This document shows, piece by piece, positions 1,196 through 30,733 of a DNA stretch of 32,000 nucleotides (position 1 is its first letter; each line of letters starts with the position of its first letter). The stretch lies in NCBI RefSeq assembly GCF_000014785.1, contig NC_008340.1, forward strand, positions 3,090,001 through 3,122,000, given 5' to 3'. The translations under genes and the position numbers were made by a program. This stretch comes from Alkalilimnicola ehrlichii MLHE-1. GTDB taxonomy: Bacteria; Pseudomonadota; Gammaproteobacteria; Nitrococcales; Halorhodospiraceae. Below the pieces are notes generated by a model that made no database searches, was not told the origin of the DNA, and saw only the letters and a program-made list of their open reading frames with translations.

Positions 1196-2440
1196 TCAGA
1201 AGAACAGAATGGCACCCAGGGCCACGTTGTCCTCGCGATTGTCGTCACCCGCATGGTTCTCGGCCTTGGTCCGGGTGAACTCGGCGACCAGGTTCAGGTT
1301 CGGCGTGATCGGATGGTACGCGCCCACGATCACCGAGCTGTTGCGGTCAAGCAGGGTATCGGGATCGCCGTTGTTTTGGTCCAGGTTGCTTTCCCCGTAA
1401 CTCAAACCGAGCTTGGTGCCCAATCCCGGCAGGGTGTAGGTGCCCTGCAGCATGAAGCCGTCAGAGTCGCGGCGCGTCCCATCCGCGGAGGCGGCTTGGT
1501 GGAGAAACGCCGTGGTGCCGATGCCCTTGCCTTCGTAGTAGTAGGCGACGCCCTCGAAGCCGGCGATGCCCGCCTTGACGCCCAGGTCGAACCCGGTGGC
1601 GCGGAAGTCATCGAAGCTGCCGTCCCGGTCATCCACCTTCTGGTTGATGAACCCGGCCCAGACGCGGCCACTGACATCCCGAGCCGTCCAATCGTAAGTG
1701 ACTTTGCCCTCGACCGCCGGGCTGGTCTTTTCCCCCACCGCAGCTAGGGAGTTGTCACCCGGCGCGACGGTGAAGGGATCGAAGGGATCAGTGGCGCCGA
1801 TCACAAAGCCAAAGCCGTTGAAATCGGGCGAGGCGTAGCTGATCTGCGCCTTCCAGTCCGCGTAGAGATAGCCGTTGCCGACCCGACCCAAGGAGGTGTT
1901 GCCACCCCCCAGGGTGATATCGGAGACCGTGCCCACCCCCAACAGGCTCATATCGGAGAGGATGGCATCGGAGCCGAAGATCCCCAGGTCACGCCCGAGC
2001 TTGAAGGTACCGATGCGCTCATTGCCCACGGTCAGGAAAACCTGACGGAAGTTCACGTTGCCGAAGCCCAGCCCAGTGTCCGCCGAACCGGCGACGGAGA
2101 CCGCGTCCCCGCCATCCACACCCGGCCAGTAGCTGACATAGGCCGCGATATCGAGGCCGTTCTGGGTGGTGGAGGCGCCGATGCCGAGCTTCGCTGGCAG
2201 AAAACCGGTTCGGATATTGGCGCGCCGGTCGCTCTCCGCGGCGTCCGTGCAGGCCAGGCCGCCCTGGACGGTCGCCGCATCGCTCTCGCAACGGGTGTTC
2301 GTGTAATAGGCATTGACGTTGCCGTCGAAGGTCAGGGTCCAATCACCGGCCTCGACCTCGATCTGCGCCTGGGCGGCGGAGGCCAGCAATAGGCCCGCCA
2401 TACCTGCAGCCGTGGCCACTGGAGTGGTAAAACGTCGCAT
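1196..2440 (-). CDS. Outer-membrane general porin (beta-barrel)
   Basis: 414-aa ORF with signal peptide ...LLLASAAQAQ. Alternating Gly/Tyr/Asp-rich strand pattern, aromatic C-terminus ...ALGAILFF, SD GAGGAGA 8 nt before the ATG. Confidence 0.8.
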   Translation of the reverse strand: MRRFTTPVATAAGMAGLLLASAAQAQIEVEAGDWTLTFDGNVNAYYTNTRCESDAATVQGGLACTDAAESDRRANIRTGFLPAKLGIGASTTQNGLDIAAYVSYWPGVDGGDAVSVAGSADTGLGFGNVNFRQVFLTVGNERIGTFKLGRDLGIFGSDAILSDMSLLGVGTVSDITLGGGNTSLGRVGNGYLYADWKAQISYASPDFNGFGFVIGATDPFDPFTVAPGDNSLAAVGEKTSPAVEGKVTYDWTARDVSGRVWAGFINQKVDDRDGSFDDFRATGFDLGVKAGIAGFEGVAYYYEGKGIGTTAFLHQAASADGTRRDSDGFMLQGTYTLPGLGTKLGLSYGESNLDQNNGDPDTLLDRNSSVIVGAYHPITPNLNLVAEFTRTKAENHAGDDNREDNVALGAILFF

Positions 2441-2872: not shown

Positions 2873-2888
2873 TGGCCCAACCCTTGCT
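2873..2888 (+). promoter_or_regulatory. Sigma-54 (-24/-12) promoter for aldehyde dehydrogenase
   Basis: TGGCCC-AACCC-TTGCT matches TGGCAC-N5-TTGCW with correct GG/GC spacing. It lies 137 nt upstream of the ATG at 3025. A sigma-54 activator gene is present in the window. Confidence 0.65.
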
Positions 2889-3024: not shown

Positions 3025-4545
3025 ATGATCTACGCAAACCCCGGTGAGCGCGACGCGAAAGTCCAGTTCAAACCCCGCTACGGAAACTTCATCAATGGCG
3101 AGTGGGTAGAACCGGCCAGTGGCCAGTATTTTGAGAACATCACCCCGGTAACGGGAGAAGTATTCTGCGAAGTCGCCCGGTCCAATGCCGATGACGTGGA
3201 ACGCGCCCTGGACGCGGCCCACGCCGCCAAAGATGCCTGGGGGAAAGCGTCGGTGACCGAGCGTGCCAACGTGCTGCTGAAGATCGCCGATCGCATGGAG
3301 GCCAACTTGGAGCGCCTGGCGGTGGCCGAGACCTGGGACAACGGGAAGCCCGTGCGTGAAACCCTCAACGCCGATCTCCCGTTGGCCATTGATCACTTCC
3401 GCTACTTCGCCGGGGCCATCCGGGCCCAGGAAGGCGGTATCAGCGAGATCGACCACGACACCATCGCCTACCACTTTCATGAGCCGCTGGGCGTGGTGGG
3501 GCAAATCATCCCCTGGAACTTCCCGCTGCTGATGGCCACCTGGAAGATCGCCCCGGCCCTGGCTTGTGGCAACTGCATCGTGCTCAAGCCCGCCGAGCAG
3601 ACACCGGCGTCCATCCTGGTGTTGATGGAGTGCATCCAGGACGTGCTGCCCCCGGGGGTGCTGAACGTGGTGAACGGCTTCGGTGTCGAGGCCGGCAAGC
3701 CGCTGGCCACCAGCAACCGCATCGCCAAGGTGGCGTTCACCGGCGAGACCACCACCGGGCGGCTGATCATGCAGTACGCCGCCGAGAACATCATCCCGGT
3801 AACCCTGGAGCTGGGCGGCAAATCGCCGAACATCTTCATGGCCGACGTGATGGACCAGGATGACGACTTCCTGGACAAGGCCATTGAGGGGATGACCCTG
3901 GCGTGCCTGAACCAGGGCGAGGTCTGCACCTGTCCCTCGCGCGCGCTGATCCAGGAGGACATCTACGACGATTTCATTGCCAAGGTGATCGACAGGTTCA
4001 GCATGGTGAAACAGGGCAACCCGCTGGACACCGAAACCATGATCGGGGCCCAGGCCTCCTCCGAGCAGATGGAGAAGATCCTGAGCTACATGGACATCGG
4101 TCGGCAGGAAGGCGCCGAGTGCCTCATCGGCGGCGACCGCGCCGAGATCGGCGGTGATTTCCAGAACGGCTACTACGTGCAGCCGACCCTGTTCCGCGGC
4201 CACAACAAGATGCGCATCTTCCAGGAGGAGATCTTCGGCCCGGTGGTTTCCGTCACCACTTTCAAGGACGAGGCCGAGGCGCTGGAGCTGGCCAACGACA
4301 CCCTCTACGGCCTGGGGGCCGGTCTCTGGAGCCGCAGCGCACACACCACCTACCGCATGGGCCGGGCCATCCAGGCCGGCCGGGTGTGGACCAACTGCTA
4401 CCACCTGTACCCGGCCCATGCCGCCTTTGGTGGTTACAAGCAGTCCGGCATCGGGCGGGAGAACCACCAGATGATGCTGGAGCACTACCAGCAGACCAAG
4501 AACCTGCTGGTGAGCTACAGCCCCAAGGCCATGGGCTTTTTCTAA
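3025..4545 (+). CDS. NAD(P)+-dependent aldehyde dehydrogenase (acetaldehyde dehydrogenase, AcoD/ExaC-like, 506 aa)
   Basis: 506 aa with SD GAGGAGA. N-terminus ...[16 protein letters not shown] hallmarks include PWNFPLLM, catalytic-Glu motif ELGGKSP, catalytic-Cys region [11 protein letters not shown] and EEIFGPV. Its length and N-terminus are typical of the 506-aa ethanol/acetoin-associated ALDH group. Confidence 0.93.
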
Positions 4546-4660: not shown

Positions 4661-5041
4661 ATGAGTCATTCCCCCGTATCCCGCGTCACCGCCACCGAGG
4701 CGGCGCTGGAACTCATCGACGAACTGCGCGCCCAGCATGGTGAGTTAATGTTCCACCAGTCCGGCGGCTGCTGCGACGGCAGCTCACCCATGTGTTATCC
4801 GAGGGGCGAATTCCGCATCGGTCAGAGCGACATCTTGCTCGGCGAGATCGGTGGCTGTCCTTTCTACATGAGCGAGTCCCAATTCGAATACTGGCAACAC
4901 ACCCACCTGATTATCGACGTTGTGCCCGGCCGTGGCGGCATGTTCTCGCTGGAGGGCCCCACGGGCAGACGTTTCCACACCCGTTCAAGGCTGTTCACCG
5001 ATGCCGAATGGACGGCATTGCAAGCGCAGGAGGGCCGCTGA
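4661..5041 (+). CDS. DUF779 family protein (commonly paired with aldehyde dehydrogenases)
   Basis: 126 aa with SD CAGGAGG. Motifs FHQSGGCCDGSSPMCY and VVPGRGGMFSLEG match what I recall of DUF779. Its position directly downstream of an ALDH is the classic context. Confidence 0.8.
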   Translation: MSHSPVSRVTATEAALELIDELRAQHGELMFHQSGGCCDGSSPMCYPRGEFRIGQSDILLGEIGGCPFYMSESQFEYWQHTHLIIDVVPGRGGMFSLEGPTGRRFHTRSRLFTDAEWTALQAQEGR

Positions 5042-5107: not shown

Positions 5108-7174
5108 ATGCGACCACTGACCCCATACCCCACCCTGGGTGTTCTCTCATCCCTGATCCTCGGCACCGCGGGCACCGCCGTGGCCGACACCACCCCATCG
5201 GCCGAGGCCTTGGAGCCTATCCAGGTCACCGCACCGCGCCTGGAGCGGGATTGGCTGGCAAACCCATCCGCCGTCGGCGTGCTCACGCCGGAGGACATCC
5301 AGCCCGGGCACCAGAATCTGCAGATGGATGAACACCTGAACCGGATCCCCGGCCTACAGATGCAAAACCGCTACAACTTCTCCCAGGATTTGCGGGTCTC
5401 CATCCGCGGCTTTGGCGCGCGCGCGCCCTTCGGTATCCGGGGGCTGCGGGTAATCGTGGACGGGATCCCCGAAACCCTCCCCGACGGGCAGTCCCAAGTG
5501 GACGCCATCGACCTGGAATCGCTGCACCAGGCCGAGGTCATCCGCGGCCCCAGCTCAACCCTTTACGGCAACGCCGCGGGCGGCGTGCTCGATCTCCGTA
5601 CCCAAAGCGGCCGGGATATCGACGGCGCCGCGGTCAAGCTGGATTACGGCAGCGACGACTTCCGGCGCATCGGCCTCAAGGCGGGCGGCGGCCAGGGGCC
5701 TTGGGAGTACAGCGTCAGTACCTGGGATATGCGCTACAACGGCTACCGGGATCACAGTCGGGTGGAGAAGCGCCTGTTCAACAGCAAGCTGGCCTATGAA
5801 TGGGCTGATGGCGGACGCCTGGAGACCATCGTCCGCCTGTTGGATGCCCCGGACACCCAGGATCCGGGCTCCCTGACCCTGGACCAAGTGGATGAGGACC
5901 GCCGGCAGGCACGCCCCGAGTCAAAGGCACTGGATGGCGGCCAGTCCGCCGAGCAGCAGACGGTGGGCCTGGTCTACTCGCGTCCCATGGCCGCCCAGGA
6001 CGAAATCACCCTGCGCGCTTTCTACACCCGCCGCGATTTCGGCAATCGACTGCCCTTCGAGAGCGGTGGTCAGGTTCAGTACGAGCGCGACTTTTACGGC
6101 CTGGGCGGCCAATACACCCATCTCAACGAAGTGATGGGGCGCCCCGCCCGGCTCGGCGTAGGCTTCGACGCCGAGGAACAGCGCGACGACCGCCAGCGCT
6201 TTGACAATCTGGCCGGCGGGGCGCGCGGTGACCAGACCTTCGACCAGCGGGAAAAGGCGCGGACCCTGGCGCTCTTCAGCCAGGGCGATCTCGCCCTGAC
6301 CGACCGGTTGGACCTCGTCTTCGGAGCGCGCTTCGACCAACTGCGCATCGCCGTCGATGACCGATTCCAGCCGATGGGTGAAGACCGCTCCGGGCGTGAG
6401 ACCTTCAACGAGTGGAGCTACAGCACCGGTCTGAGCTACCGCTGGGCCCGCGCCCACCAGATCTACGCCAACGTCGGCACATCCTTCGAGAGTCCCACCT
6501 TCACCGAGTTCGCGAATCCCGACGGTGGCACCGGGTTCAATCCCGACCTGAAACCCGAAAAGGCCGTCAACTACGAGCTGGGCGCCAAGGGGTTCATCGG
6601 CGATCACAGCCGTTACGAGCTGTCGCTTTACACCATTCGCGTCCGCGATGAGATCGTTAATTTCCAGCGGGACGCCGGTCGCGACTTCTACGAGAACTCA
6701 GGCCGTTCCCGCCGTAACGGCCTGGAACTGGGCCTGGAACACCGCCCCGCAGACCAATGGGTCCTGACCGCCGCCTACACCTACACCGACTTTGAGTTCC
6801 GCGACTTTGAAGACCGGTTCGGTAATGACTTCAGCGGCAACGCCTTCCCCGGCGTCCCGCGCCAACAGTTATTCGCCGAGGCGGCGTGGCAGGATCGCGA
6901 GGGCCGCTTTGCCGCCCTGGATGTCGTTGCCGTTGACCGGCAGTACGCGGACAACGCCAACGAGGAGCGGGTATCGGGCTACGGGGTCGCCAACCTCCGC
7001 GCCGGCACCCGGCTAAGGCTGCAGGGCCTGGAGGTCTCGCCCTATGTGGCGGTGAACAACCTTTTCGACAAAGAGTACTTCAGCAACATTCGCATCAATA
7101 CCTTCGGCGGGCGCTTTTATGAGCCCGCCCCCGAGCGCACTGTCTTCGCCGGCGTTACCATCCGCCCCCGATAG
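5108..7174 (+). CDS. TonB-dependent receptor, YncD/PqqU-like subfamily (candidate PQQ or metal-chelate importer)
   Basis: 688 aa. Signal peptide ...GTAGTAVA, TonB-box-like EPIQVTAPR. Plug region PGLQMQNRYNFSQDLRVSIRGFGARAPFGIRGLRVIVDGIPETLPDGQSQ...VIRGPSSTLYGNAAGG. C-terminal NLFDKEY...GRFYEPAPERTVFAGVTIRPR. The subfamily call rests on remembered resemblance to E. coli YncD and is not computed. Confidence 0.85.
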   Translation: MRPLTPYPTLGVLSSLILGTAGTAVADTTPSAEALEPIQVTAPRLERDWLANPSAVGVLTPEDIQPGHQNLQMDEHLNRIPGLQMQNRYNFSQDLRVSIRGFGARAPFGIRGLRVIVDGIPETLPDGQSQVDAIDLESLHQAEVIRGPSSTLYGNAAGGVLDLRTQSGRDIDGAAVKLDYGSDDFRRIGLKAGGGQGPWEYSVSTWDMRYNGYRDHSRVEKRLFNSKLAYEWADGGRLETIVRLLDAPDTQDPGSLTLDQVDEDRRQARPESKALDGGQSAEQQTVGLVYSRPMAAQDEITLRAFYTRRDFGNRLPFESGGQVQYERDFYGLGGQYTHLNEVMGRPARLGVGFDAEEQRDDRQRFDNLAGGARGDQTFDQREKARTLALFSQGDLALTDRLDLVFGARFDQLRIAVDDRFQPMGEDRSGRETFNEWSYSTGLSYRWARAHQIYANVGTSFESPTFTEFANPDGGTGFNPDLKPEKAVNYELGAKGFIGDHSRYELSLYTIRVRDEIVNFQRDAGRDFYENSGRSRRNGLELGLEHRPADQWVLTAAYTYTDFEFRDFEDRFGNDFSGNAFPGVPRQQLFAEAAWQDREGRFAALDVVAVDRQYADNANEERVSGYGVANLRAGTRLRLQGLEVSPYVAVNNLFDKEYFSNIRINTFGGRFYEPAPERTVFAGVTIRPR

Positions 7175-7193
7175 CGCCCCACCAGTCCTCCGG

Positions 7194-7235
7194 CCCCCTG
7201 TTCCGGCCCCACCGGACAGGGGGTCCTTTGCTTCC
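7194..7235 (+). terminator. Rho-independent-like terminator after the TonB receptor
   Basis: CCCCCTGTTCCGG-cccca-CCGGACAGGGGG is a 12-bp stem with one bulged T (7194-7223), followed by tcctttgcttcc. Confidence 0.55.
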
Positions 7236-7302
7236 GGGGTGCCGGCCACAGCAACCCGATAAAGGTGCCTGTCTCCCGCCTGTAACAGCCCCGGCCCGGC
7301 CG

Positions 7303-7337
7303 ACTGTGCCATTCCTGGGACACTGCAGCGTGACAGC
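7303..7337. promoter_or_regulatory. Candidate UAS upstream of the PQQ-ADH promoter, related to the box at 2789-2809
   Basis: ACTGTGCCAT (7303-7312), then GGGACAC, then CAGCGTGACA (7326-7335). Both decamers ACTGTGCCAT and CAGCGTGACA are shared with the aldehyde dehydrogenase upstream region. The box lies ~130-160 nt upstream of the -24/-12 promoter at 7466. Confidence 0.4.
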
Positions 7338-7465
7338 CCCGATTTCAGCCGGTTCGCGACCCGACGCCGGCCCCCCATCGCCAAGGACAGCCCCCTCGCC
7401 ACGGCCCCGCCCCGCGTCATTCTGACGCACCTTGAGCGCCATCTCCGAGCACCCAAACGCAGAGC

Positions 7466-7481
7466 TGGCATAGCTGTTGCT
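7466..7481 (+). promoter_or_regulatory. Sigma-54 (-24/-12) promoter for the PQQ alcohol dehydrogenase operon
   Basis: TGGCAT-AGCTG-TTGCT is a near-perfect match to TGGCAC-N5-TTGCW. It lies 80 nt upstream of the ATG at 7561. Confidence 0.75.
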
Positions 7482-7560
7482 TGAAGGACGTTGCGGGCTG
7501 GCCACCAAGCCATCCAATTGCCTGGCAACGAAAAAAGAGATGAGAGGAGAAAGGCGAACA

Positions 7561-9369
7561 ATGACTACCGTAAAGCACAACCTGCGCATAGCGCTGATCC
7601 CGGCCACCGTGGCCGCCGTCGCCCTGGGGGCCGGATGCGCCACCGCGGGCAGCCACGGAAACGGGGACTTCCCCGAAAGTATCACCCAGGCGATGATCGA
7701 CGCCGACTTCCACCACAACGACCGCATCCTGACCTACGGCCAATCCCCCGAAGGACAGCGTTACAGCACCCTGGACAAGATCAACCGGGACAATGTGCAC
7801 GCCCTCACCCCGGCCTGGGCCTACTCCTTCGGCGGTGAACAGCAGCGGGGCCAGGAAAGCCAGACCCTGGTGTATGACGGCGTGATCTACGTGACCGGCT
7901 CTTACTCCCGCATGTGGGCGGTGGATGCCCGCACCGGCGAGCGGCTCTGGCAGTACGCCCACCGCCTGCCCGACGGCATCATGCCCTGCTGTGACGTGGT
8001 CAACCGCGGCATGGCCCTCTACGACGACCTGGTCATCTTCGGCACCCTGGATGCGCAACTGGTGGCCTTGGACCGGCACACCGGCCGGGTCCGTTGGCGC
8101 GACCGCATCGCCGACTACCGGGCTGGCTATTCCTACACCGCCGCACCGATGATCGCCAACGATCTGTTGATCACCGGCAACTCCGGAGGCGAGTTTGGCG
8201 CCGTCGGCGAAGTGCAGGCCCGCGACCCGAAGACCGGCGACATCGTCTGGACCCGCCCGGTGGTGGAAGGTCACATGGGCACGCTGCCGGATGGCAGTGA
8301 GACCATGACCGGCGAGCTGAACGCAACCTGGGAGGGTGAGGCCTGGAAGACCGGCGGTGGCGCCCCCTGGCTGGGCGGCACCTATGACCCGGAGCTCAAC
8401 CTGATCTACATCGGCACCGGCAACCCGGCCCCGTGGAACGCCCACGCCCGCCCCGGTGACAACCTCTACACCTCCGCCACCGTGGCCCTGGATGCCGACA
8501 CCGGGGAGATCGTCTGGTACTACCAGACCACCCCCAATGACCACTGGGATTACGACGGCGTCAATGAGCTGGTGCTGTTCGACTACGAGCACAACGGTGA
8601 GACCGTCAAGGCCGGTGCCAAGGCCGACCGCAACGGCTTCTTCTACGTGATGAACCGGGAGAACGGCGAGCTGCTGCTGGCCGAACCCTTCGTGGAGAAC
8701 ATCACCTGGGCCAGCCATATCGACATGGAGACCGGGCGCCCGGTCGAAATCGAGGGCGGCCGCCCGGGCAACCCGGCCGACATGGAGGGCGACCGGGGCG
8801 AGGCCGTGACCGCCCAGCCGGCCTTCCTTGGCGGCAAGAACTGGAGCCACATGTCCTACAGCCAGCGCACGGGCCTGTTCTATATCCCCTCCAACGAGTG
8901 GGAGATGGAGATCTGGAATGAGCCGGTGGACTACCGTCGCGGTGCCGCTTACCTGGGTGCCGGCTTCACCATCAAGCCCATCTACGACGACAAGGTCGGC
9001 GTACTGCGCGCCCTCGACCCGGCCACTGGCGAGATTGTCTGGGAAGTGCCCAACCGCTCGCCGCTCTGGTCCAGCGTGCTCACCACCGCCGGCGGCCTGG
9101 TCTTCTACGGCACCCCCGAGGGCCACCTGAAGGCCATGTGCGATGAGACCGGGGAGGAGCTCTGGAGCTTCCAGACCGGTTCCGGGATCGTCGGCCAACC
9201 GGCCACCTGGGAGATGGACGGCGAACAGTATATCTCCGTGGTCTCCGGCTGGGGCGGCGCGGTGCCGCTCTGGGGCGGGGAGGTGGCCCCGCTGGTCCGC
9301 CATATTAGCCAGGGCGGCATGCTCTGGACCTTCAAGATCTCCGACCTGGCCGCGGAGGCCGGCCTGTAA
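7561..9369 (+). CDS. Periplasmic PQQ-dependent alcohol (ethanol/methanol-family) dehydrogenase, type I quinoprotein, with the lanthanide-type D-x-D signature
   Basis: The track ORF starts at 7477. I prefer the ATG at 7561 (SD GAGAGGAGAAAGG), which gives [31 protein letters not shown] as signal. The vicinal disulfide motif PCCDVVNRG is at C143-C144 (7987-7992). [13 protein letters not shown] aligns with MxaF TPHDEWDYAGVN. Propeller W-motifs occur throughout. Confidence 0.92.
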
Positions 9370-9387
9370 GGCCGAGCCCGCACGAAG

Positions 9388-9414
9388 GGCCCGGTGCCGC
9401 CGCAGCACCGGGCC
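9388..9414 (+). other. Perfect 10-bp intercistronic stem-loop between the ADH and cytochrome c genes
   Basis: GGCCCGGTGC-cgccgca-GCACCGGGCC. No clear U-tract follows (gttctgg). Likely a processing/stability element or partial terminator. Confidence 0.5.
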
Positions 9415-9469
9415 GTTCTGGCCCGGCGCCAGCATGCAGTGACCTTCAACGTATTAACGGTGCAACACC

Positions 9470-9916
9470 ATGGCTACTAGAACGACTAAGCGACTTCTGC
9501 AGACCGCCGTGGCCGGCGCGATGCTTGCGACAGGGATGGCCCTCTTCGCCCATGGCGATGTGAACCCGCAACCGGTGGATACCGGCGACCTACCGGAACT
9601 GGACGACTGGAAACTGGAAAACCCCTTTCGCGACGCCGATGAATCTACGCTCAACGAGGCCATACGCATCGGCGAGCGCGGCTACCAGGCCAACTGTGCC
9701 GTCTGCCACGGTCTCGGCGGCGCCTCCGGTGGAATCGCCCCGGACCTGCGCCTGCTGGAACCCGGCTTCGACGACGAATACTACGTTCAGACGGTTCGCA
9801 AGGGTCGCGGCGCCGGCATGCCGTCGTTCGACGGCGTACTGAGCCAGGAGGCCATCTGGGCCATTTACACCTGGCTGAACACCATGCACGAGGAGGCGAT
9901 GGATGAATACTACTGA
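9470..9916 (+). CDS. Cytochrome c550-type electron acceptor for the quinoprotein dehydrogenase (ExaB/PedF-like)
   Basis: 148 aa. Signal peptide ...MALFA/HGD. A single heme motif CAVCHG (9695-9709) and a distal Met in GRGAGMPSF. It sits immediately downstream of the PQQ-ADH. Confidence 0.85.
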   Translation: MATRTTKRLLQTAVAGAMLATGMALFAHGDVNPQPVDTGDLPELDDWKLENPFRDADESTLNEAIRIGERGYQANCAVCHGLGGASGGIAPDLRLLEPGFDDEYYVQTVRKGRGAGMPSFDGVLSQEAIWAIYTWLNTMHEEAMDEYY

Positions 9917-10919
9917 TCTGATCAAGGCCGGCCGCCTGGCCGCCACCGCCGCCCTCTGCGGTGCCACGCTGTTCGCCGGTAGCGCGAACGCCGAGCGGCT
10001 GCACGAGATCCGCGACCGCGGCACACTGACCGTTGCCCTGTACAACGACTTCGGGCCCTACTCCTGCGTCGGCACCGGCGGCGAGCTGATCGGGGTTGAC
10101 GTGGCCCTGGCCCGCGCCCTGGGCGAGAAGCTGGACCTGAAGGTGGAGCTGGCCGGCTTCGGCGCCCAGGACAGCATGGACCAGGACCTGGCCCTGCTGC
10201 AGGACGAACAGGCCGAGGACGAGTGGGACGAGGCCCTGCTCGAGCGCGCCCCCGACCTGATGATGCACGTACCGGTGGACCCCGTCTTCCAGGAGCGCAA
10301 CGCCGATTACGACATCATGGGCGCCTACTTCCACGAGGCCATGGCGGTGCTCTACGACCGCGAGGAAATCGGCGATCTGGGGTACTCGGTGAACACCCCG
10401 GACCCGTTCGATGGCCTGCGCGTGGGTGTGGAGATGTACACCTACTCCTACACCATGCTCACCAACGGCTTTGACGGCCGCCTGCGCTCCGGCGTGGTCA
10501 ACCACAAGAACGTGCCCGAAGCAGTGGAGGCCCTGCTTGCCGGTGAGACCTCCGCGGTTTTCGCACCGCGCGGCGAGCTTCAGAGCGCCCTGGCCGCCTT
10601 CCCCGAACCGCGCACCAGCCTCGCCCTGAGCGAGCTGCGCGACCTGTTCCGCACGGACCGGGTGCGTAGCGACTGGGACGTGGGCATGGCCGTCAAGGCC
10701 GGCAACCCGGAGCTCTCCCGGGCAGTCGAGGAGGCCATGGCACAACTGGTGGCCGACGGGACCGTGGAGCGTATCTTTAACGAATACGGCATCGCCTGGG
10801 TGGGCCCGGGGGAGGAGTACCGCCTAGCCCGCAACGGCAATGGCCCCGCGGGCGTGACCCGCACCGGCCTGGAACGCGCGCAGCTCTGCCGGGCAACAAT
10901 GCCGGCCGGACTGTACTGA
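9903..10919 (+). CDS. Periplasmic family-3 substrate-binding protein, MoxJ/MxaJ-like (quinoprotein-dehydrogenase-associated)
   Basis: 338 aa. It overlaps the cytochrome c stop by 14 nt, which suggests coupling. Signal peptide ...FAGSANA, then RDRGTLTVALYNDFGPYS typical of PBP type-2 domains. An acidic insertion DSMDQDLALLQDEQAEDEWDEALLER is present. No cognate permease or ATPase is adjacent. Confidence 0.7.
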   Translation: MNTTDLIKAGRLAATAALCGATLFAGSANAERLHEIRDRGTLTVALYNDFGPYSCVGTGGELIGVDVALARALGEKLDLKVELAGFGAQDSMDQDLALLQDEQAEDEWDEALLERAPDLMMHVPVDPVFQERNADYDIMGAYFHEAMAVLYDREEIGDLGYSVNTPDPFDGLRVGVEMYTYSYTMLTNGFDGRLRSGVVNHKNVPEAVEALLAGETSAVFAPRGELQSALAAFPEPRTSLALSELRDLFRTDRVRSDWDVGMAVKAGNPELSRAVEEAMAQLVADGTVERIFNEYGIAWVGPGEEYRLARNGNGPAGVTRTGLERAQLCRATMPAGLY

Positions 10920-10951: not shown

Positions 10952-11719
10952 ATGAGGGTATCCCCGCACTTGCTACCCCTTTGCTTGCTTCTGGCAGCGG
11001 CGCTGGCGGCTCCGGCCGCCGCTGGCGTCGAGGAGGATCCACTGGGTTCGCCGGGCTGGCACTTGTCCAAGGCCCGCTATTTCCAAGGCGAAACTTATGT
11101 CTTCGCCCACGACAAGGTCCAGGTGATTGCACCGGATAGTGCCGAGGACACCTTCCAGGTCCCCGGTTTCGTCCGCGTCGAGGGGCTGGGCAACGTACGG
11201 CGGCTGATGGTCTTCACCGACCTCAACCCCATCCCGAAGATCCTCGACATGGAGATACCGCGCGGCGCGCCCAATGTGGGCTTCCGGTTCAAAGTCGAGC
11301 AGGCGACGGCCCTGCGGGCCGCGGCACAGACCGAGGACGGCGTCTGGCACCTGGGGGGCACCTGGATCGACGCTGCCGGCGGCGGCTGCAGCGCACCGAG
11401 CATCGCCAGCGCCGATCCAGCCTGGGAGAGCCGGTTGGGCGAAATCCGCGGCCGCACCTGGCAGCGGGAGGGCAGCCAACGGGTGCGCTTCAGCCTCCTG
11501 CACCCCATGGATACCGGGCTTGCCCCTGGAATCCCCGAGTTTTACCTGGAAGAGCTGGAGGTCCGGGACGGCAATGACCAGACGCTGGCCCGCATGGAGA
11601 TCCACGCCTCCATGTCGGAGAACCCCCATCTGACCCTCGACCTGGAGCACCGGGGTACAACACGACTGGTCGGTCGTGATAACAACGGCAACCGCTTCGA
11701 GGGGACCCTGCAGCCATGA
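10952..11719 (+). CDS. Fused SoxY-like/SoxZ-like periplasmic carrier protein with an internal GGGC cysteine motif (quinoprotein-associated)
   Basis: 255 aa with SD GGGAGGA and signal peptide ...AAPAAAG. The N-domain ends in WIDAAGGGCS (Cys146, codon 11387-11389), resembling the SoxY C-terminal GGC carrier motif. The C-domain has SoxZ-like LLHPMDTG and SMSENPHLTL. Cys146 is the only Cys outside the signal peptide. Confidence 0.7.
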   Translation: MRVSPHLLPLCLLLAAALAAPAAAGVEEDPLGSPGWHLSKARYFQGETYVFAHDKVQVIAPDSAEDTFQVPGFVRVEGLGNVRRLMVFTDLNPIPKILDMEIPRGAPNVGFRFKVEQATALRAAAQTEDGVWHLGGTWIDAAGGGCSAPSIASADPAWESRLGEIRGRTWQREGSQRVRFSLLHPMDTGLAPGIPEFYLEELEVRDGNDQTLARMEIHASMSENPHLTLDLEHRGTTRLVGRDNNGNRFEGTLQP

Positions 11720-12693
11720 TGGAATACCCACTGCAAGCGCCTTTCCTTCGGCTGGCGGCGATGGCGCTAGGCCTCCTGACCATTGGAGCTGCCAACGCGG
11801 GGGGAATCTTTTACGGCCTGCAGCCGCAGCAGGTCGCCGATGGGGTGTACATCTTCGAGGGTCGCCAGGAACACTTCACCCGGCGCAATGGCGGCAATAT
11901 CGTCAACACCGGCTTTGTGATCACCAGCGCCGGGGTGGTGGTATTGGACACCGGGCCGTCCCGGGCCTACGGGGAGGAGATGCGCCGCGCGATCGCACAA
12001 GTCACCGATCAACCCATCCACAGTGTCTACCTGACCCACCACCACCCCGATCACTTTCTGGGCAACCAGGCCTTCGAGGATGTCCCCATCTGCGCCCTGC
12101 CCTACACCCGCGAGATGATCGAGCGGGACGGCGAGGCGCTGCTGGACAACATGTATAACCTGCTCAGCGGCTGGATGGGCGGCACCTATGTGGTGGCGCC
12201 GGATTGCACCGCCGAGCCAGGGCCTGTCACCGTAGGCGAACGCACGCTTGAGGTCATCGCCGGCGCCGGGCACAGCGGCCCCGAGGCCTCTGACCTCATG
12301 CTCCACGACCAGCGCAGCGACACCCTGTTCGCCGGCGACCTGGTCTTCTACGACCGGGCGCCCACCACCCCCCATGCGGACCTCTCCCGCTGGGTCGCGC
12401 TGCTCCATGAGTTGGAACGGGAACTGCCCCGAACACTGGTGCCAGGTCACGGCCCCGTCACCCGCGACGTCGAGGCCGTGCTGCAGACCCGTGACTACGT
12501 GGAGTGGCTCGCCTCCGCCCTGCGCGAAGCGGCGGAACAGGGCCTGGACATGGCCGAGGCACTGGAGTTGGAGGTGCCGGAACGCTTCCGCCATCTGGCA
12601 GTGGTGGACGAAGAACTGCGCCGTTCGGTGGCGCACCTGTACCCGGGTTACGAAACCCAAGCATTGAACCAAGTCATTGATGGTCTGCAATAG
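11716..12693 (+). CDS. Periplasmic metallo-beta-lactamase-fold zinc hydrolase (quinoprotein-cluster-associated)
   Basis: 325 aa. ATGA overlap with the upstream stop. Signal-like N-terminus ...LTIGAANAGG. HxHxDH motif THHHPDH (12037-12054). Downstream GAGHSG and LVPGHG are metal-ligand-like His. Confidence 0.8.
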   Translation: MMEYPLQAPFLRLAAMALGLLTIGAANAGGIFYGLQPQQVADGVYIFEGRQEHFTRRNGGNIVNTGFVITSAGVVVLDTGPSRAYGEEMRRAIAQVTDQPIHSVYLTHHHPDHFLGNQAFEDVPICALPYTREMIERDGEALLDNMYNLLSGWMGGTYVVAPDCTAEPGPVTVGERTLEVIAGAGHSGPEASDLMLHDQRSDTLFAGDLVFYDRAPTTPHADLSRWVALLHELERELPRTLVPGHGPVTRDVEAVLQTRDYVEWLASALREAAEQGLDMAEALELEVPERFRHLAVVDEELRRSVAHLYPGYETQALNQVIDGLQ

Positions 12694-13318
12694 CCGCCAC
12701 CATCGCGAGGGCAAGGGGTGGCGCCGCTCAGGCACCGTGCCGGCCCTGGTCGTTTGCGGGCTACTGCTCAGCGGGTTGCTAATCCCGGGTGTGGCCGCGA
12801 CGGTGGACGATGCCGATGACCCCATCTGGCACCACCCGCACATCAACGCCGAGGGTTACCGTTATGCCCGCTACCGCGCCGCGACACCGGACTCTGTGCC
12901 GGAAGGGGAGACGGTGGATACCGGCCGTGCACAAGCCCTCTGGGCCGCCGGGGAGGTCGTGGCCATCGATGTGATGCCGGTCCTCGAACGGAAAGGACCG
13001 GACGGGAAGCCGGAGTGGGTGGTGCTGGAGGAACGCCGGCACATTCCCGGAAGCATCTGGCTACCCAACGTGGGCGCGGGGCGGCTGAGCCCAGAAATGG
13101 AGGCCTGGTTCGCCGATGCCCTGGCGGAGTTGACCGCCGGTGATAGCAACCAGCCGCTCCTCTTCTACTGCATCACGGATTGCTGGATGGCCTGGAACGC
13201 GGTGCGCCGCGCGGCCGCCCTGGGTTACACCTCGCTCTACTGGTACCCGCCGGGGGCGGATGGCTGGCAGCGGGCGGGGCTGCCGACGGAACCTGCCCAA
13301 CCGAAACCACGACACTAA
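12680..13318 (+). CDS. Periplasmic rhodanese-like protein with a C-x3-C-W motif (PQQ-catabolism-associated CXXCW-type family)
   Basis: The track ORF starts with TTG at 12677. The ATG at 12680 overlaps the MBL gene end. Signal peptide ...LLIPGVAATV. Motif LLFYCITDCWMAWNAVRRAA (Cys164/Cys168/Trp169, 13169-13186). The family assignment is from memory of genomic-context families. Confidence 0.6.
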   Translation: MVCNSRHHREGKGWRRSGTVPALVVCGLLLSGLLIPGVAATVDDADDPIWHHPHINAEGYRYARYRAATPDSVPEGETVDTGRAQALWAAGEVVAIDVMPVLERKGPDGKPEWVVLEERRHIPGSIWLPNVGAGRLSPEMEAWFADALAELTAGDSNQPLLFYCITDCWMAWNAVRRAAALGYTSLYWYPPGADGWQRAGLPTEPAQPKPRH

Positions 13319-13327: not shown

Positions 13328-13636
13328 ATGCGCACAACCAACCACTTGGCCCTTGCCATGACCCTGCTGCTCGCCGCCGGCCCGGCCCTGGGCGATGACG
13401 GGGCAGACGGTGCGGAGCGCTACCGTGACGGCATGATCGGTCGCATTGAGGCCTATGCGGTCTACAAGATGGGGGATTACGAAGGCGCCTTCCGCCGTTT
13501 CCTCCAGATGGCCCTGGCGGGGGACCCGGCCGCCATGGAACAACTGGCCACCCTCTACGAGCGCGGCCAGGGTATGGCGGCCCCGGATCCAGTGGCGGCA
13601 GAGGCGTGGCGCGGACGGGCCCGGGAGGCCGACTGA
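13328..13636 (+). CDS. Small secreted Sel1/TPR-like repeat protein
   Basis: 102 aa. Signal peptide ...AAGPALG/DD. Sel1-like repeat LAGDPAAMEQLATLYERGQGMAAPDPVAAEAWRGRA. The SD is weak. Confidence 0.55.
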   Translation: MRTTNHLALAMTLLLAAGPALGDDGADGAERYRDGMIGRIEAYAVYKMGDYEGAFRRFLQMALAGDPAAMEQLATLYERGQGMAAPDPVAAEAWRGRAREAD

Positions 13637-13831
13637 TGAACCGAACATGGATATAAAATATATTCTTTTTCCGACCAACTATACAGTCGGCGTAAAAGTC
13701 CGGTTATAGTAACCGAACAGGGATAATAAAAAGGTGCACGAAGCCGACCAAAACGCTTTACAACGCCTTTCGAAGCGGTACCGGTGCCCCACCAGAACAA
13801 CAGTCACAGGGGCGACCGGCAGGAGGAGAGA

Positions 13832-15820
13832 ATGTCATCGATTATCGCCCCGATCTCCTTGGGACGCGCCTCTGAGGGCGGATACCCCAGCCCCCTCCCG
13901 GGCGACAAGGCGCAGCGCCTCATTTCCAAGAGTTGGCAGCGTTGTCAGGCCTACGGCCTCGACCCCCGCAAAAAGCCAAAGGACGCCAACGTGCTGGAAG
14001 GCCCGCAGGTAAAGGAAGAGCGGGAGCGTCACGGCGAGCTGCTGAAAGTGGCCAACGCCGAGATGCACAGCCTTTACCAGCAGGTCTCCGGGTCCGGCTG
14101 GTCCCTGCTGCTCACGGACAACCGCGGCGTGATCCTCGACTACGTGGGAGACCCGAACCTGCGGCGTGAATTCCGTTCGGCGGGCCTGTGGCTGGGTGCC
14201 GACTGGAGTGAACGCCACGAAGGTACCAACGGCATCGGCACCGCCCTCACTGAGAGCCGCCCGGTGGCAGTACTGCGGGACCAGCACTATAAGGCGTGTC
14301 ACCACGCGCTGAGCTGTTGCGGGGCCCCCATTCTGGACGCCAACGGCCAGGTGATGGCCGTCCTGGACGCCTCCACCGTGAACGGCAATCAGACGCCGGA
14401 GACCCAGAGCCACACCCTGGCACTGGTCACCCTGTCCGCCCAGTTCATCTCCAAGTGGCGGTTCCTGGAGGAATTCTCGGATGCCATCATCATCCGCTTC
14501 CACAGCCGCTGCGAATATGTCGGTCTGATCAATGACGGTGTGCTGGCGGTCTCCCGGGACGGCACCATCGTTGGTGCCGACCACAACGCCTGCGTCTTCC
14601 TGGGACTCCCCGACCGGCATCGCCTCATCGGCTGGCCCATTGACCAGGTCTTGGACATCCGTCCGGAGATCCTGGTGGAACGGGCCGAACGCCCGTACCT
14701 CCCCTACTGGGTGCTCACCACGGCCCAGGGCACCCAGTTGCACGCCCGTATCCAGCTGGGGCACACAGCAGCGGGCCGCCGGGCGGCGGAACAGCCCGCC
14801 CGCCCCGTACCGGTCCAAAGCCGCAGTGCCAGTCAACCCCGCGATCACCGCGCCACGCTCTGCACCCTGGAGGCACTCAAGGGCAATGACCCGCGCATGG
14901 CGCGCAACGTTAACCGGGCCTACCGGATCATCGATAAGGACATCCCCATCCTGTTGAACGGCGAGACCGGCACCGGCAAGGAACTGTTCGCCCGCGCCGT
15001 GCATACGGCCAGCAGCCGCAGGGACGGCCCCTTCGTTGCCGTGAACTGCGCCTCGATACCGGAGCCCCTGATCGAGAGCGAGCTGTTCGGCTACAAGGGT
15101 GGCGCCTTTACCGGCGCCGACCGCAACGGGCGCAAGGGCAAAATCCTCCAGGCCCACGGCGGCACGCTGTTCCTGGACGAGATCGGGGATATGCCGCTGG
15201 AACTGCAGGCCCGCCTGCTGCGGGTCCTGGAAGAGCGCGAGATCGTGCCCATCGGCGGTGACAAACCACAGGCGGTGGATGTCTACCTGGTCTCGGCGAC
15301 TCATCACAACCTTCCGGAGCTGGTGGCCGAGGGGCGCTTTCGGGAAGACCTTTACTACCGACTCAACGGCCTCACCCTGACCCTACCCCCGTTGCGCGAC
15401 CGGGCTGACTGCCAGGATGTCATTCGCTGCATCCTGCGACTGGAGAGCGATGGCCGGGTGGATATCGATCAGGCGGCGTTGGCGGTGCTGCGCAACCATC
15501 CCTGGCCCGGCAATATCCGCCAGCTACGCAACGTGCTGCGCACCGCCGTTGCGCTCAGCGATGGCGAGACGCTCACGGTGGAAGACCTGCCCGACGATGT
15601 GCTGGATGCCGCTGAGACAGCCGGCGACGACCAGGTGATAGAGGGCACCTGCACCGGCGGCGGCGACCCGTTGGCCAACGCCGAGCGCCGGGCACTCCAA
15701 GCCGCCCTGGAGCAGCACGGCGGCAACGTCAGCCGCACTGCGGAGAGCCTGGGCGTGAGCCGTAACACCCTCTACCGGAAGATGCGGCGGCACGGTCTCG
15801 GCGGCGCCCGCGGCGGCTGA
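13832..15820 (+). CDS. Sigma-54-dependent transcriptional activator, AcoR-like (N-terminal GAF-type sensor, AAA+ core, Fis-type HTH)
   Basis: Start moved to the ATG at 13832 (SD AGGAGGAGAG). Walker A GETGTGKE, sigma-54 contact loop GAFTGA (15101-15118), ESELFGY and Walker [10 protein letters not shown]-terminal [25 protein letters not shown]. Confidence 0.9.
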
Positions 15821-15864: not shown

Positions 15865-17112
15865 TCAGTGGGCGGGCTCCAACCGATAGAGCCCCCCCGA
15901 CTCCTCATCCGTGAGCAGGTAGAGCCGGCCGTCCGGCCCCTGCCGCACATCCCGGATGCGCCCGAGGGTGCCGTCGAGCAGGAGCTCCTCGTGGACCACG
16001 CGGTCGCCCTCCAGCACCAGCCGGTGCAAGCGCTCCTCGGCCAGCGACCCGGCAAACAGATCGCCCTGCCAGCCCGGCACCTCATCACCGCTGTAGAAGG
16101 CGAGCCCTGAGGGGGCCATAGAGTAGTCCCAGTAGTGGACCGCCGGGGTCACGCCGGGGGCGGACCGGCCAATGCCGACCTGCTCGTCGGTGGAGTACTC
16201 GGTGCCGTAGGCCACTTGGGGCCAGCCGTAGTTGTTGCCGGGCTCGATCCGGTGGATCATGTCGCCGCCCCGGGGCCCGTGCTCGCTGGTCCAGATCTCA
16301 CCGGTCTCCGGGTGGATGGCCAGGCCCTGGTTGTTGCGGTGACCGAAGGAGTAGATCTCCGGCCGCAGGTTGCCCGGCGCCATGCCCACCAGCGGGTTGT
16401 CCTCGGCGGCGCCACCATCCTCGTTGAGGCGGATCATGGACCCGGCCGGATCGGTCAGATCCTGCGAGGGGGCGCGCAGGCCGCTGTCGCCGATGGAGAA
16501 GATCACGGTGCCGTCGCCCGGAAAGACGATCCGCGAGCCGTAGTGCCGGCCCGGGGCGGTGCGGGGCATCTGCACGTACAGCGTCTCCAGGTCGGTGAGC
16601 TGGCTGCCGTCGTCGCTCAACCGCGCCCGGGCCAGGGCGGTGCCGCTGCCAAACTCGGCGTCGCCGATGACCGCGTCCGGATCCCCCGGGCTGGAATAGG
16701 TCATGTAGATCCAGCCGTTGTCCTCGTAATCGGGGTGGACCGCCAGATCGAGCAGGCCGCCCTGCCAGCTCGCCTCCAGGGCCAGACCGTCGCGCTCCTC
16801 GGGGTTCACCCGGGGGGTATTACCCACGCGGGTGATGTCATCGCCATCCACCAGCCAGAGGCGGCCGGGGCGTTCGGTGACGAGCTTGCGGCCATCGGGC
16901 AGCCAGGCCACCGCCCAGGGGTGCTCCAACCCCTCCAGCACCTGGACGACATCAAAGCGGGCCTGCTCGCTCTCGACCCCGGCGGCCACCACCTGGTCAC
17001 TGCGACTGACCTCCGCCAGCGCCGACAGGCTGGTCACCAGCAAGACCGCTGGGACCGCTGCCCCGACTACGCAGCGGGCTGGGGTCGTAAGGAATGAACC
17101 AGGCTGCTGCAT
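15865..17112 (-). CDS. Soluble PQQ-dependent sugar (glucose/sorbosone) dehydrogenase, YliI/Asd-like beta-propeller
   Basis: Start trimmed to the ATG at 17112 (SD GAGGAGG), giving MQQPGSFL... with signal ...LSALAEV. Motifs LEHPWAVAWLPDGR, GGLLDLAVHPDY, FSIGD, GHRNNQGLAIHP, EHGPRGGD, NYGWP and GRIRDVRQGPDGRLYLLTD. Confidence 0.85.
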   Translation of the reverse strand: MQQPGSFLTTPARCVVGAAVPAVLLVTSLSALAEVSRSDQVVAAGVESEQARFDVVQVLEGLEHPWAVAWLPDGRKLVTERPGRLWLVDGDDITRVGNTPRVNPEERDGLALEASWQGGLLDLAVHPDYEDNGWIYMTYSSPGDPDAVIGDAEFGSGTALARARLSDDGSQLTDLETLYVQMPRTAPGRHYGSRIVFPGDGTVIFSIGDSGLRAPSQDLTDPAGSMIRLNEDGGAAEDNPLVGMAPGNLRPEIYSFGHRNNQGLAIHPETGEIWTSEHGPRGGDMIHRIEPGNNYGWPQVAYGTEYSTDEQVGIGRSAPGVTPAVHYWDYSMAPSGLAFYSGDEVPGWQGDLFAGSLAEERLHRLVLEGDRVVHEELLLDGTLGRIRDVRQGPDGRLYLLTDEESGGLYRLEPAH

Positions 17113-17203
17113 GGTGCCTCCTCGGGTAGACCTATTGCCGGAATGTAACGGATAGCATAGCCACCCGACACCGGTCCGACAGGACGCCGCCCTTGGGAGG
17201 GGC

Positions 17204-18010
17204 TCAGTCCGCGTTGGGGAAGAACAATCGCTCGCCACGCAGGGTGTAGCGGGCGATGGCGCTCTGCCCGGTCTCGGAGAGCAGCCACTCGTGCCACTGC
17301 CGGGCCCGTTCGTGGTTCAGGTGGGGATGGCGTTCGGCGCTCAGCAGCAGGGTCCCGTACGGGTTGTGCAACGCCTCATCCCCCTGGAACAGGATCTCGA
17401 GACGCTGGCGGTTATCGAAGGCGACCCAGGTGGCGCGGTCCGACAGCACATAGGCATCCATGGCGGCGGCGGTATTGAGGGTGGGCCCCATACCGCCGCC
17501 CAACGCCCGGTACCAGCGCCCGGAGGGCGCGATACCGGCCGCTTGCCACAGCCGCTGCTCCGCCCGGTGGGTACCGCTGTCGTCGCCGCGGGAGGTGAAA
17601 GGCGCGCGGGCCCCGGCGATGCGCTGCAGGGCATCGGCGATGTCGTCGGCATGGCCCACATCCGCAGGGTCGTCTGCCGGGCCGATGAGGACAAAATCGT
17701 TGTACATCACATCGCGCCGCTCGACCGCATAACCGGCCTCGACAAAGGCCCGCTCACCGACAGGGTCGTGGACCAGCAGGCTGTCCACATCACCCCGCCG
17801 GGCAAGGGCGAAGGCCTGGCCGGTGCCCACGGCGATCACCCGCACGTCGATGCCCGTCGCCTCTGAGAATTTCGGGATGATGTGCTGGAACAGGCCGGAC
17901 TGCTCGGTGGAGGTGGTGGAGGCCAGGGTGATGTAATCCCGCGCCTGGGCCGTGCCCGCCAGAGTCAGCGCGGCCAGGCCGATGAGGATCCAACAAACGC
18001 TTCTGATCAT
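17204..18010 (-). CDS. tupA: Tungstate(/molybdate)-type ABC transporter periplasmic binding protein
   Basis: Start trimmed to the ATG at 18010 (MIRSVCWILIGLAALTLAGTAQA). ITLASTTSTEQSGL...VIAVGTGQAFALARRGDVDSLLVHD...RRDVMYNDFVLIGPADDPA matches the remembered TupA pattern (TTTS-type anion motif). Confidence 0.7.
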   Translation of the reverse strand: MIRSVCWILIGLAALTLAGTAQARDYITLASTTSTEQSGLFQHIIPKFSEATGIDVRVIAVGTGQAFALARRGDVDSLLVHDPVGERAFVEAGYAVERRDVMYNDFVLIGPADDPADVGHADDIADALQRIAGARAPFTSRGDDSGTHRAEQRLWQAAGIAPSGRWYRALGGGMGPTLNTAAAMDAYVLSDRATWVAFDNRQRLEILFQGDEALHNPYGTLLLSAERHPHLNHERARQWHEWLLSETGQSAIARYTLRGERLFFPNAD

Positions 18011-18070
18011 CCCCTGCCCTGTCGCCACGCTGCGCCCCTCCAAGCCGGCGCCCGGTCCGACGACCGGGCG

Positions 18071-18850: not shown

Positions 18851-18852
18851 GT

Positions 18853-19551: not shown

Positions 19552-19732
19552 GACCAGGAAAGATAGTCGGAAAACGGCTGCACTGGGGCACACAGTCTGC
19601 CGACAACCGCTGCATCATGAAATGGAAACAGCCTTACAACGCGAATATGCAGGATAAGGGGCGGCCACCGCCGGCAGCGCGGGCGATGGCCGAAGCCGAG
19701 AGGAGAGGTGGATCAAGGGCGGGCGGGGGCCG

Positions 19733-21352: not shown

Positions 21353-21357
21353 GGCGA

Positions 21358-22212: not shown

Positions 22213-22235
22213 AACGGGACCTCCCATAGCGAGTG

Positions 22236-26404: not shown

Positions 26405-26574
26405 GACTGCTTACTCCTGAAGATGATGACCGGCGGGGTGCCGGGTGGTTAACGTCCCTGTTGAGCCCTTCTCAGCGGCCCACTGCCTGGTCCGCGGGTA
26501 CCCCGGCGGGTGTGATCGGCCCCGGACTGGCCTGACAATCTACCGTTTTTCCCCCGACCATTAAACCCGCCCGC

Positions 26575-27795: not shown

Positions 27796-27910
27796 AGTGG
27801 AGCGTTCCGTTGGCGGTGGACAGGCGCGATATACTAGCAGGTTCGTTGCAAATCCCCAGCAGCGACCCCGGACACTCCCTCATCCCGCAAGGAGGAGCCC
27901 CAGCGCAGGC

Positions 27911-30733
<2,823 letters not shown>

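Follow-up and report, generated by a model that had tools for sequence, protein, structure and literature searches.

A predicted lanthanide-type PedH/ExaF ethanol dehydrogenase and its gene cluster in a 32-kb stretch of the Alkalilimnicola ehrlichii MLHE-1 genome

PedE and PedH, two alcohol dehydrogenases that depend on pyrroloquinoline quinone (PQQ), differ in the residue located two positions after the catalytic Asp (the +2 position), which is Ser in PedE and Asp in PedH, and PedH is active with lanthanides only (PMC5487730). In the 6ZCW structure of PedH, the Pr3+ ion is held by E199, N281, D323, and D325; the +2 Asp is treated as a family signature, and genes carrying it are reported to be widely distributed (2024 review, PMC11845868). 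The D320A substitution in XoxF1 led to the loss of both La3+ coordination and activity, and the D319S substitution left ExaF without efficient La3+-supported oxidation of ethanol; enzyme produced in the absence of lanthanide binds Ca2+ and shows little or no activity (bioRxiv 10.1101/2020.02.25.964783). Here, we describe a gene located at positions 7561–9369 (+) of a 32,000-nucleotide stretch of contig NC_008340.1 (positions 3,090,001 to 3,122,000; G+C content 67%), referred to below as the window. Judging from the sequence, we are confident, short of certainty, that its product is an exported quinoprotein, an eight-bladed PQQ ethanol dehydrogenase of the PedH/ExaF type, with a lanthanide bound at E211, N288, D330, and D332.

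The open reading frame (ORF) covers 7477–9369 (+). Translation likely begins at the ATG at 7561, with GAGAGGAGAAAGG just before it, and the product is 602 amino acids (aa) long. The features of the gene, including those that rely on the per-residue confidence (pLDDT) of a structural model, are the following:

7561..9369, + strand: PQQ-dependent alcohol dehydrogenase of the PedH/ExaF (Asp) type, 602 aa (TIGR03075, match to PedH 6zcw, AlphaFold/Foldseek)
7561..7638, + strand: N-terminal export signal ending in the lipobox-like LGAG/C26 (sequence pattern; model pLDDT < 50 at residues 1–35)
7987..7992, + strand: Cys143–Cys144, the vicinal disulfide of quinoprotein alcohol dehydrogenases (aligns with ExaA C105–C106; invariant in 42/42 sequences)
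8191..8193, + strand: Glu211, metal ligand, preceded by Gly210 (aligns with PedH E199 and ExaA E179)
8422..8424, + strand: Asn288, metal ligand (aligns with PedH N281 and ExaA N266)
8545..8559, + strand: W-D-Y-D-G motif, W329 to G333 (aligns with WDFDG of PedH, WDFSG of ExaA, WDYDG of XoxF, and WDYAG of MxaF)
8548..8550, + strand: Asp330 (GAT), predicted catalytic base and metal ligand (aligns with PedH D323, ExaA D316, and MxaF D303)
8554..8556, + strand: Asp332 (GAC), predicted extra lanthanide ligand (equivalent to PedH D325, chain D299, and to XoxF 6dam D329; S318 in ExaA, A305 in MxaF)

The dehydrogenase matches TIGR03075, the NCBIfam model of PQQ methanol/ethanol-family dehydrogenases, with 773 bits (cut-off 480). 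Its top sequence matches in the Protein Data Bank (PDB) are two entries of Pseudomonas putida KT2440 PedH, 6zcw (780 bits) and 6zcv (774 bits); lower matches include ExaA 1flg (702 bits), XoxF 6dam (391 bits), the type II quinohemoprotein dehydrogenase 1kv9 (378 bits), and MxaF enzymes (about 300 bits). The AlphaFold2 model, built from an alignment of 38 sequences (A1), has a mean pLDDT of 80.6 and a predicted template modeling score (pTM) of 0.86. A Foldseek search with this model against the PDB returned PedH 6zcw first, with a template modeling score (TM) of 0.94 and 59% identity, and ExaA next, with a TM of 0.91. The family model, the predicted structure, and the Foldseek matches all indicate the eight-bladed beta-propeller of the PQQ methanol/ethanol dehydrogenases. 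The level of identity is 60.1% with PedH, 59.1% with ExaA, 43% with XoxF 6dam, and about 32% with MxaF in the fold comparison. In addition, MxaF has Ala (WDYAG) in the place of D332, and no MxaI-like gene was recognized in the window by Pfam and NCBIfam scans. On sequence grounds, the enzyme is assigned specifically to the PedH/ExaF ethanol dehydrogenase type, and to neither XoxF nor MxaF. Because the substrate-pocket residues F422 and W571 match the wild-type state of PedH, both positions being altered in the engineered PedH entry 6zcv, a PedH-like alcohol substrate range is suggested.

The N-terminal signal of the dehydrogenase is hydrophobic. The lipobox-like LGAG/C26 is also present in the homolog P0001, and P0008 has a similar sequence (VAAGC), whereas most homologs have ordinary Ala-x-Ala cleavage sites. 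The protein may be anchored by a lipid, as far as this pattern can be taken.

The metal site was compared in a MAFFT alignment of 42 sequences, comprising the window protein, 32 database homologs, five Ser-type paralogs of related loci, and four structure sequences:

Metal-ligand Glu: window E211; PedH chain E173; ExaA E179; XoxF 6dam E197
Metal-ligand Asn: window N288; PedH chain N255; ExaA N266; XoxF 6dam N285
Catalytic Asp: window D330; PedH chain D297; ExaA D316; XoxF 6dam D327
+2 position: window D332; PedH chain D299; ExaA S318; XoxF 6dam D329

The full-length numbering of PedH is obtained by adding 26 to the chain numbering, and E211, N288, D330, and D332 align with the Pr3+ ligands of PedH. 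A first-pass annotation of this DNA, made from the letters alone, had placed D332 in the metal site as the extra Asp of the W-D-Y-D-G motif, and the alignment puts it there, not outside the site. The coordinates given for the motif and for the D332 codon, the residue numbering, and the sequence are all exact (W329 is encoded by 8545–8547, Y331 by 8551–8553, and G333 by 8557–8559; the surrounding 13-residue segment corresponds to 8530–8568). The MxaF segment cited for comparison is genuine as well: PDB 1w6s reads FGYQKTPHDEWDYAGVN (longer quote, QKTPHDEWDYAGVN) and contains D303 and A305, while PDB 1h4j is the D303E mutant of MxaF in the same place. The statement that Ca2+ enzymes have Ala or Ser at the +2 position agrees with S318 of ExaA and A305 of MxaF; the type II enzyme 1kv9 has Thr there. 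The PQQ-site residue Arg357 and the disulfide C143–C144 are conserved in the dehydrogenase. In alignment A1, E211, N288, D330, and C143–C144 are all invariant, and so is the D332 column.

A homologue search returned 7,993 proteins with E <= 1e-50, and the motif was read in the best 120 of them. In all 120, the +2 residue is Asp, within WDFDG, WDYDG, or FDFDG. The GAC codon of D332 is two bases apart from the Ser codon AGC. Since all of the 120 best homologs have this Asp and the column is invariant in the 38-sequence alignment, D332 is neither a chance substitution nor a sequencing error.

In the 42-sequence alignment, 21 columns split Asp-type from Ser-type enzymes, and the window protein is of the Asp type at 21/21. 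For example, all Asp-type enzymes, like XoxF, have Gly at position 210, whereas Ser-type enzymes have Asp. On the neighbor-joining tree (200 bootstraps), which included the PedH, ExaA, and XoxF structure sequences, the Ser-type clade of ExaA and five paralogs with the WDFSG motif is monophyletic (200/200). An enzyme of the ExaA/PedE type would be expected to fall in this clade and to have Ser or Thr as its +2 residue; the window protein has D332 and is excluded from the clade in 200/200 bootstraps. Type I enzymes are monophyletic with the same value, and XoxF is outside them, in line with its 43% identity to the window protein versus 60% for PedH. The window protein is grouped with P0001–P0009, which are Alkalilimnicola ehrlichii, Ectothiorhodospiraceae, and metagenome sequences (200/200). 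An exact-match look-up of the dehydrogenase in the public protein collection found no identical entry. Its closest relatives are a protein of 97% identity and equal synteny from three Logan metagenome runs, a protein of Alkalilimnicola ehrlichii AK92 (83%), and one from an Ectothiorhodospiraceae metagenome-assembled genome. In the literature searched, no paper linking the Ectothiorhodospiraceae-like lineage to lanthanide alcohol dehydrogenases was found.

Several points count against lanthanide dependence of this enzyme. Its levels of identity to the lanthanide-type PedH and the Ca-type ExaA are nearly equal, and a single clade of all Asp-type sequences was recovered in only 121/200 neighbor-joining bootstraps. 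What the published mutants establish for the Asp is necessity for lanthanide function, not sufficiency. Genes for lanthanide uptake or sensing of the lut, lanM, pedA1A2BC, and pedS2R2 types were not recognizable in the window by Pfam and NCBIfam scans. The dependence of the dehydrogenase on lanthanides is predicted. The near-equal identity and the moderate monophyly would both suit a Ca2+-dependent ExaA/PedE-like ethanol dehydrogenase, or an enzyme using either metal, in which the Asp does not impose lanthanide dependence, and XoxF1 and PedH are able to bind Ca2+ when made without lanthanides. We nevertheless regard such an enzyme as improbable: Asp-bearing enzymes with Ca2+ bound show little or no activity, the window protein is of the Asp type at every discriminating column and outside the Ser-type clade in every bootstrap, and no characterized Ca-type family member in the comparison has Asp in this place. 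Because the Asp-type clade appears in only 121 of the 200 bootstraps, the placement rests on the site patterns more than on the topology. The window protein clearly belongs neither to the Ca-type clade nor to XoxF; on this simple tree, its position relative to PedH among the Asp-type enzymes is tentative.

The exact WDYDG motif is common to the window protein and XoxF 6dam, and the genes that follow the dehydrogenase gene, as in xoxFGJ clusters, encode a c-type cytochrome and a binding protein similar to MxaJ/XoxJ. A role in methylotrophy as a lanthanide methanol dehydrogenase of the XoxF type is still quite unlikely, given the much lower identity to XoxF than to PedH, the position of XoxF outside the type I clade (200/200), the score of the cytochrome above the PedF cut-off, and the presence of the ExaC acetaldehyde dehydrogenase in the cluster. 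Genes for formaldehyde handling or C1 assimilation were not found in the window by the same scans. A decayed or non-functional gene copy, its motif serving no present function, is hardly credible. Nothing was found in favor of this; the frame of 602 codons is intact with a strong coding composition (G+C content at third codon positions, GC3, 0.87), all catalytic and PQQ-site residues are conserved, the 97%-identical orthologue keeps the same synteny in three metagenome runs, and the promoter element is conserved. The lanthanide-type PedH/ExaF ethanol dehydrogenase thus remains the preferred interpretation. The first-pass prediction of a rare-earth-dependent dehydrogenase is supported by the ligand alignment, the 21 columns, and the literature mutants, with the dependence itself still a prediction. 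As for the Asp being the determinant of lanthanide use, the mutants XoxF1 D320A and ExaF D319S uphold its necessity, and its sufficiency is only inferred. The label "ethanol/methanol-family" was right about the family and can be refined to the PedH/ExaF ethanol type (60%) instead of XoxF (43%) or MxaF (about 32%).

The active site would contain PQQ and a trivalent light lanthanide held by Glu211, Asn288, Asp330, and the extra carboxylate of Asp332. Asp330 would act as the catalytic base, and the lanthanide as a Lewis acid polarizing the C5 carbonyl of PQQ. PedF, the cytochrome c550 whose gene comes just downstream, would then receive the electrons, and ExaC, the aldehyde dehydrogenase encoded upstream, would oxidize the aldehyde product. 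The dehydrogenase gene is probably transcribed from a sigma-54 promoter at 7466–7481, driven by the activator encoded at 13784–15820, and PQQ is probably imported by the PqqU-type TonB receptor encoded directly upstream of the dehydrogenase.

The gene map around the dehydrogenase was obtained from Pfam and NCBIfam scans of the window:

2–1195, − strand: TonB receptor fragment
1196..2440, − strand: porin-like outer-membrane protein (weak OMP_b-brl match)
3025..4545, + strand: acetaldehyde dehydrogenase ExaC, PedI equivalent (NF050026, 973 bits, cut-off 900)
4661..5041, + strand: DUF779 protein, partner of ExaC-type aldehyde dehydrogenases (PF05610, 171 bits)
5108..7174, + strand: TonB-dependent receptor of the PqqU (PQQ importer) type, 688 aa (NF041535, PDB matches, PQQ-binding signature)
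9470..9916, + strand: cytochrome c550 PedF, predicted electron acceptor (TIGR04494, 167.5 bits, cut-off 122; CAVCH heme motif)
9903..10919, + strand: PedG/MxaJ-like periplasmic binding protein (PF00497; in the place of pedG of the P. putida cluster)
10952..11719, + strand: SoxYZ-like carrier (TIGR04557, 215.6 bits, cut-off 140)
11716..12693, + strand: quinoprotein relay system zinc metallohydrolase 1 (TIGR04558, 392.7 bits, cut-off 300)
12677..13318, + strand: PQQ-dependent catabolism-associated CXXCW motif protein, start codon uncertain (TIGR03865, 185.4 bits, cut-off 128)
13328..13636, + strand: small exported Sel1-like protein, 102 aa (signal peptide, Sel1/TPR-like repeat)
13784..15820, + strand: sigma-54-dependent transcriptional activator, candidate cluster regulator (PF00158, 225 bits, and HTH_8)

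The cluster is a ped/exa-like ethanol oxidation module of the conventional type. The order of the P. putida module is pedE-pedF-pedG-PP_2677-PP_2678-pedH-pedI (PMC12997753), and the module in the window agrees with it in gene order. In the window, the gene next to the dehydrogenase encodes PedF, the PedG/MxaJ-like gene that follows is syntenic in nearly all related loci, and the DUF779 gene is co-located with exaC in many of them. Homologs of the porin-like protein, with 30–39% identity, adjoin the dehydrogenase gene in approximately 25 related loci of several orders. The P. putida ped cluster also includes a porin, PP_2662 (PMC12997753), and the porin-like protein of the window may be a counterpart of this alcohol porin. 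The 102-aa protein is encoded at the end of the row of accessory genes. Pfam and NCBIfam gave no match for it, a metal-binding loop is not obvious in its sequence, and its role as a small periplasmic lanthanide carrier is unsupported.

The receptor encoded at 5108–7174 has PqqU (NF041535) as its best NCBIfam model, with 439 bits, which is under the 1200-bit equivalog cut-off, a value set for close relatives among the enterobacteria. In the PDB, the receptor matches E. coli PqqU 6v81 and 9c4o best (352 bits). PqqU is defined by Y/F/W99, R304, and R365 of the E. coli protein (Munder et al., PMC12124388). In pairwise and multiple alignments, F108, R309, and R362 of the receptor occupy positions 99, 304, and 365, and R525, Q93, and Q130 correspond to R536, Q84, and Q121, while K274 of PqqU is replaced by Gln. 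The E. coli PqqU (YncD) and the receptor can be aligned over their full lengths; they differ in the level of identity (about 35%), in the K274 residue, in the model score, and in the location of the window gene beside the gene of a PQQ enzyme. The receptor orthologs in L002 and L081 keep the same signature residues, and the pairing of receptor and dehydrogenase genes is limited to the closest relatives (L001, L002, and L081–L083). Because the PQQ-binding residues of PqqU are present, the receptor is read as an importer of PQQ and not of lanthanides, and it is probably a PQQ importer encoded beside the gene of a PQQ enzyme. Lanthanide TonB transporters resemble PqqU without its PQQ-binding residues (2026 preprint); the receptor keeps them and was rejected as a LutH-type transporter. 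There are no pqq biosynthesis genes in the window. The PqqU survey reported no PQQ enzymes in its eight Ectothiorhodospirales genomes (PMC12124388).

Two elements can be noted between the receptor gene and the dehydrogenase gene:

7192..7225, + strand: GC-rich hairpin after the receptor gene, probable terminator before the dehydrogenase gene (RNA fold −43 kcal/mol, z = −3.05)
7466..7481, + strand: sigma-54 (−24/−12) promoter-like element TGGCATAGCTGTTGCT, approximately 80 bp before the start codon of the dehydrogenase gene

A simple terminator scan of 7100–9550 returned nothing and left this hairpin unflagged, and a promoter scan of the same region found no sigma-70-like site. Elements matching 7466–7481 precede the orthologs in L001, L002, L003, and L081, and a second sigma-54-like element is located at 2873–2888 (+), before exaC. 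Homologs of the sigma-54 activator are encoded near the dehydrogenase gene in L001, L002, L008, L011, L017, and L038; its N-terminal 360 residues have no family assignment. The promoter elements, together with this activator, point to sigma-54 control of the dehydrogenase gene, unlike the PedS2/PedR2 lanthanide switch of P. putida.

The first-pass annotation had also noted that no Ca-type paralogue is present in the window. A tblastn search of the whole window with the window protein, PedH, ExaA, XoxF, and the type II enzyme found only the gene at 7561–9369, and there is indeed no second eight-bladed PQQ dehydrogenase in these 32 kb. Among 80 related loci, a paralogue with the WDFSG motif was found within 10 kb in five (L014, L016, L047, L059, and L066), which belong to Marinobacter and Marinobacterium. 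In these loci, it is located approximately 4–6 kb upstream of the Asp-type gene and is divergently transcribed, and the two genes form a PedE/PedH-like pair of Ca-type and Asp-type enzymes. The WDFSG paralogue is absent from the window and from its three closest relatives, L001–L003. A solitary Asp-type gene is a common arrangement, and the negative result holds for the 32 kb, not for the whole genome.

PedH (PP_2679) of P. putida KT2440 is the nearest described enzyme by both sequence (60% over 545 residues) and fold. The two proteins are identical in all four metal ligands, in the Cys-Cys disulfide, and in the pocket Phe and Trp, and their clusters share PedF, the PedG-like protein, the SoxYZ-like carrier, the metallohydrolase, and the aldehyde dehydrogenase. 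The differences include the motif (WDYDG in the window, WDFDG in PedH), the lipobox-like signal, and the position of the window protein in a distinct subclade (200/200) with Alkalilimnicola and Ectothiorhodospiraceae sequences. The window locus has no PedE partner nearby, no PedS2/PedR2, and no PedA1A2BC; a single Asp-type gene heads the module, it appears to be controlled by sigma-54, and a PqqU-type receptor gene is adjacent. ExaF of Methylorubrum extorquens AM1, compared by its published description, is likewise a lanthanide ethanol dehydrogenase with an essential Asp (D319) and PedF-like and PedG-like flanks; unlike the window, its host is a methylotrophic alphaproteobacterium. The Ca2+ enzymes, ExaA of P. 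aeruginosa (1FLG) and PedE, resemble the window protein in the fold and by 59% identity; they have the same three ligands Glu, Asn, and Asp, the same disulfide, and the same partners, cytochrome c550 and ExaC, and differ by Ser at the +2 position and in 20 further columns (e.g., GDEFG versus GGEFG in the window). XoxF (6DAM, 6OC5, and 4MAE) has the same WDYDG, extra Asp ligand, and Gly before the Glu ligand; its identity of 37–43%, its position outside the type I clade, and its methanol-specific physiological context set it apart.

Beyond the activator gene, the window contains other genes of some relevance to PQQ and metals. A six-bladed PQQ protein similar to soluble glucose/sorbosone dehydrogenases is encoded at 15865–17238 (−), with 7cdy and YliI 2g8s as its best PDB matches. 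It has Met (GGDMIHRIEPGNNYGWP) where three solved homologs have the Glu of GGDE..NYGWP. The Glu of the GGDE stretch is a Ca ligand in YliI. Many six-bladed PQQ enzymes have been proposed to bind lanthanides (2026 preprint). A three-gene ABC transporter similar to TupABC (tungstate) is located at 17204–19593 (−), between the PQQ genes and a cluster of RND genes; its scores are below the equivalog cut-offs (TupA 191 versus 400 bits, TupB 156 versus 320). A role of this transporter as a PedA1A2BC-type lanthanide importer is not supported: the PQQ-system ATPase model gives 106 bits (cut-off 302), and both the permease and the binding protein look tungstate- or molybdate-like. Genes for a DUF1302-like outer-membrane protein and an MMPL/HAE3-type RND transporter occupy 19979–24818 (−) and 25940–30733, followed by ssb, an MFS transporter gene, and uvrA. 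As annotated, the start of the uvrA ORF runs into the MFS gene; uvrA probably begins near residue 69 instead.

A more far-reaching picture can be drawn, in which a possibly haloalkaliphilic, Ectothiorhodospiraceae-like host has a single lanthanide-type dehydrogenase with no Ca-type paralogue genome-wide and no PQQ biosynthesis, and its sigma-54-controlled ethanol oxidation depends on two scavenged cofactors, with PQQ supplied by the PqqU-type receptor, and has no fallback. We consider this doubtful, if somewhat less so than the Ca2+-dependent enzyme discussed above. Within such a scavenged-cofactor scheme, the replacement of Lys274 by Gln in the receptor might allow the co-import of a PQQ–metal complex.

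The metal site itself is ordinary, the Asp being universal among the relatives; the modest extras of this locus are a receptor of the PqqU type, control by sigma-54, and a signal that may be of the lipoprotein kind. The knowledge of the enzyme family is unchanged, as the Asp signature is already an accepted marker and is present in thousands of sequences. The dehydrogenase extends predicted rare-earth use to an Ectothiorhodospiraceae-like lineage, and the locus, with its PQQ receptor, dehydrogenase, cytochrome, accessory proteins, and activator, is a compact one in which the supply of both cofactors in a non-methylotroph may be studied.

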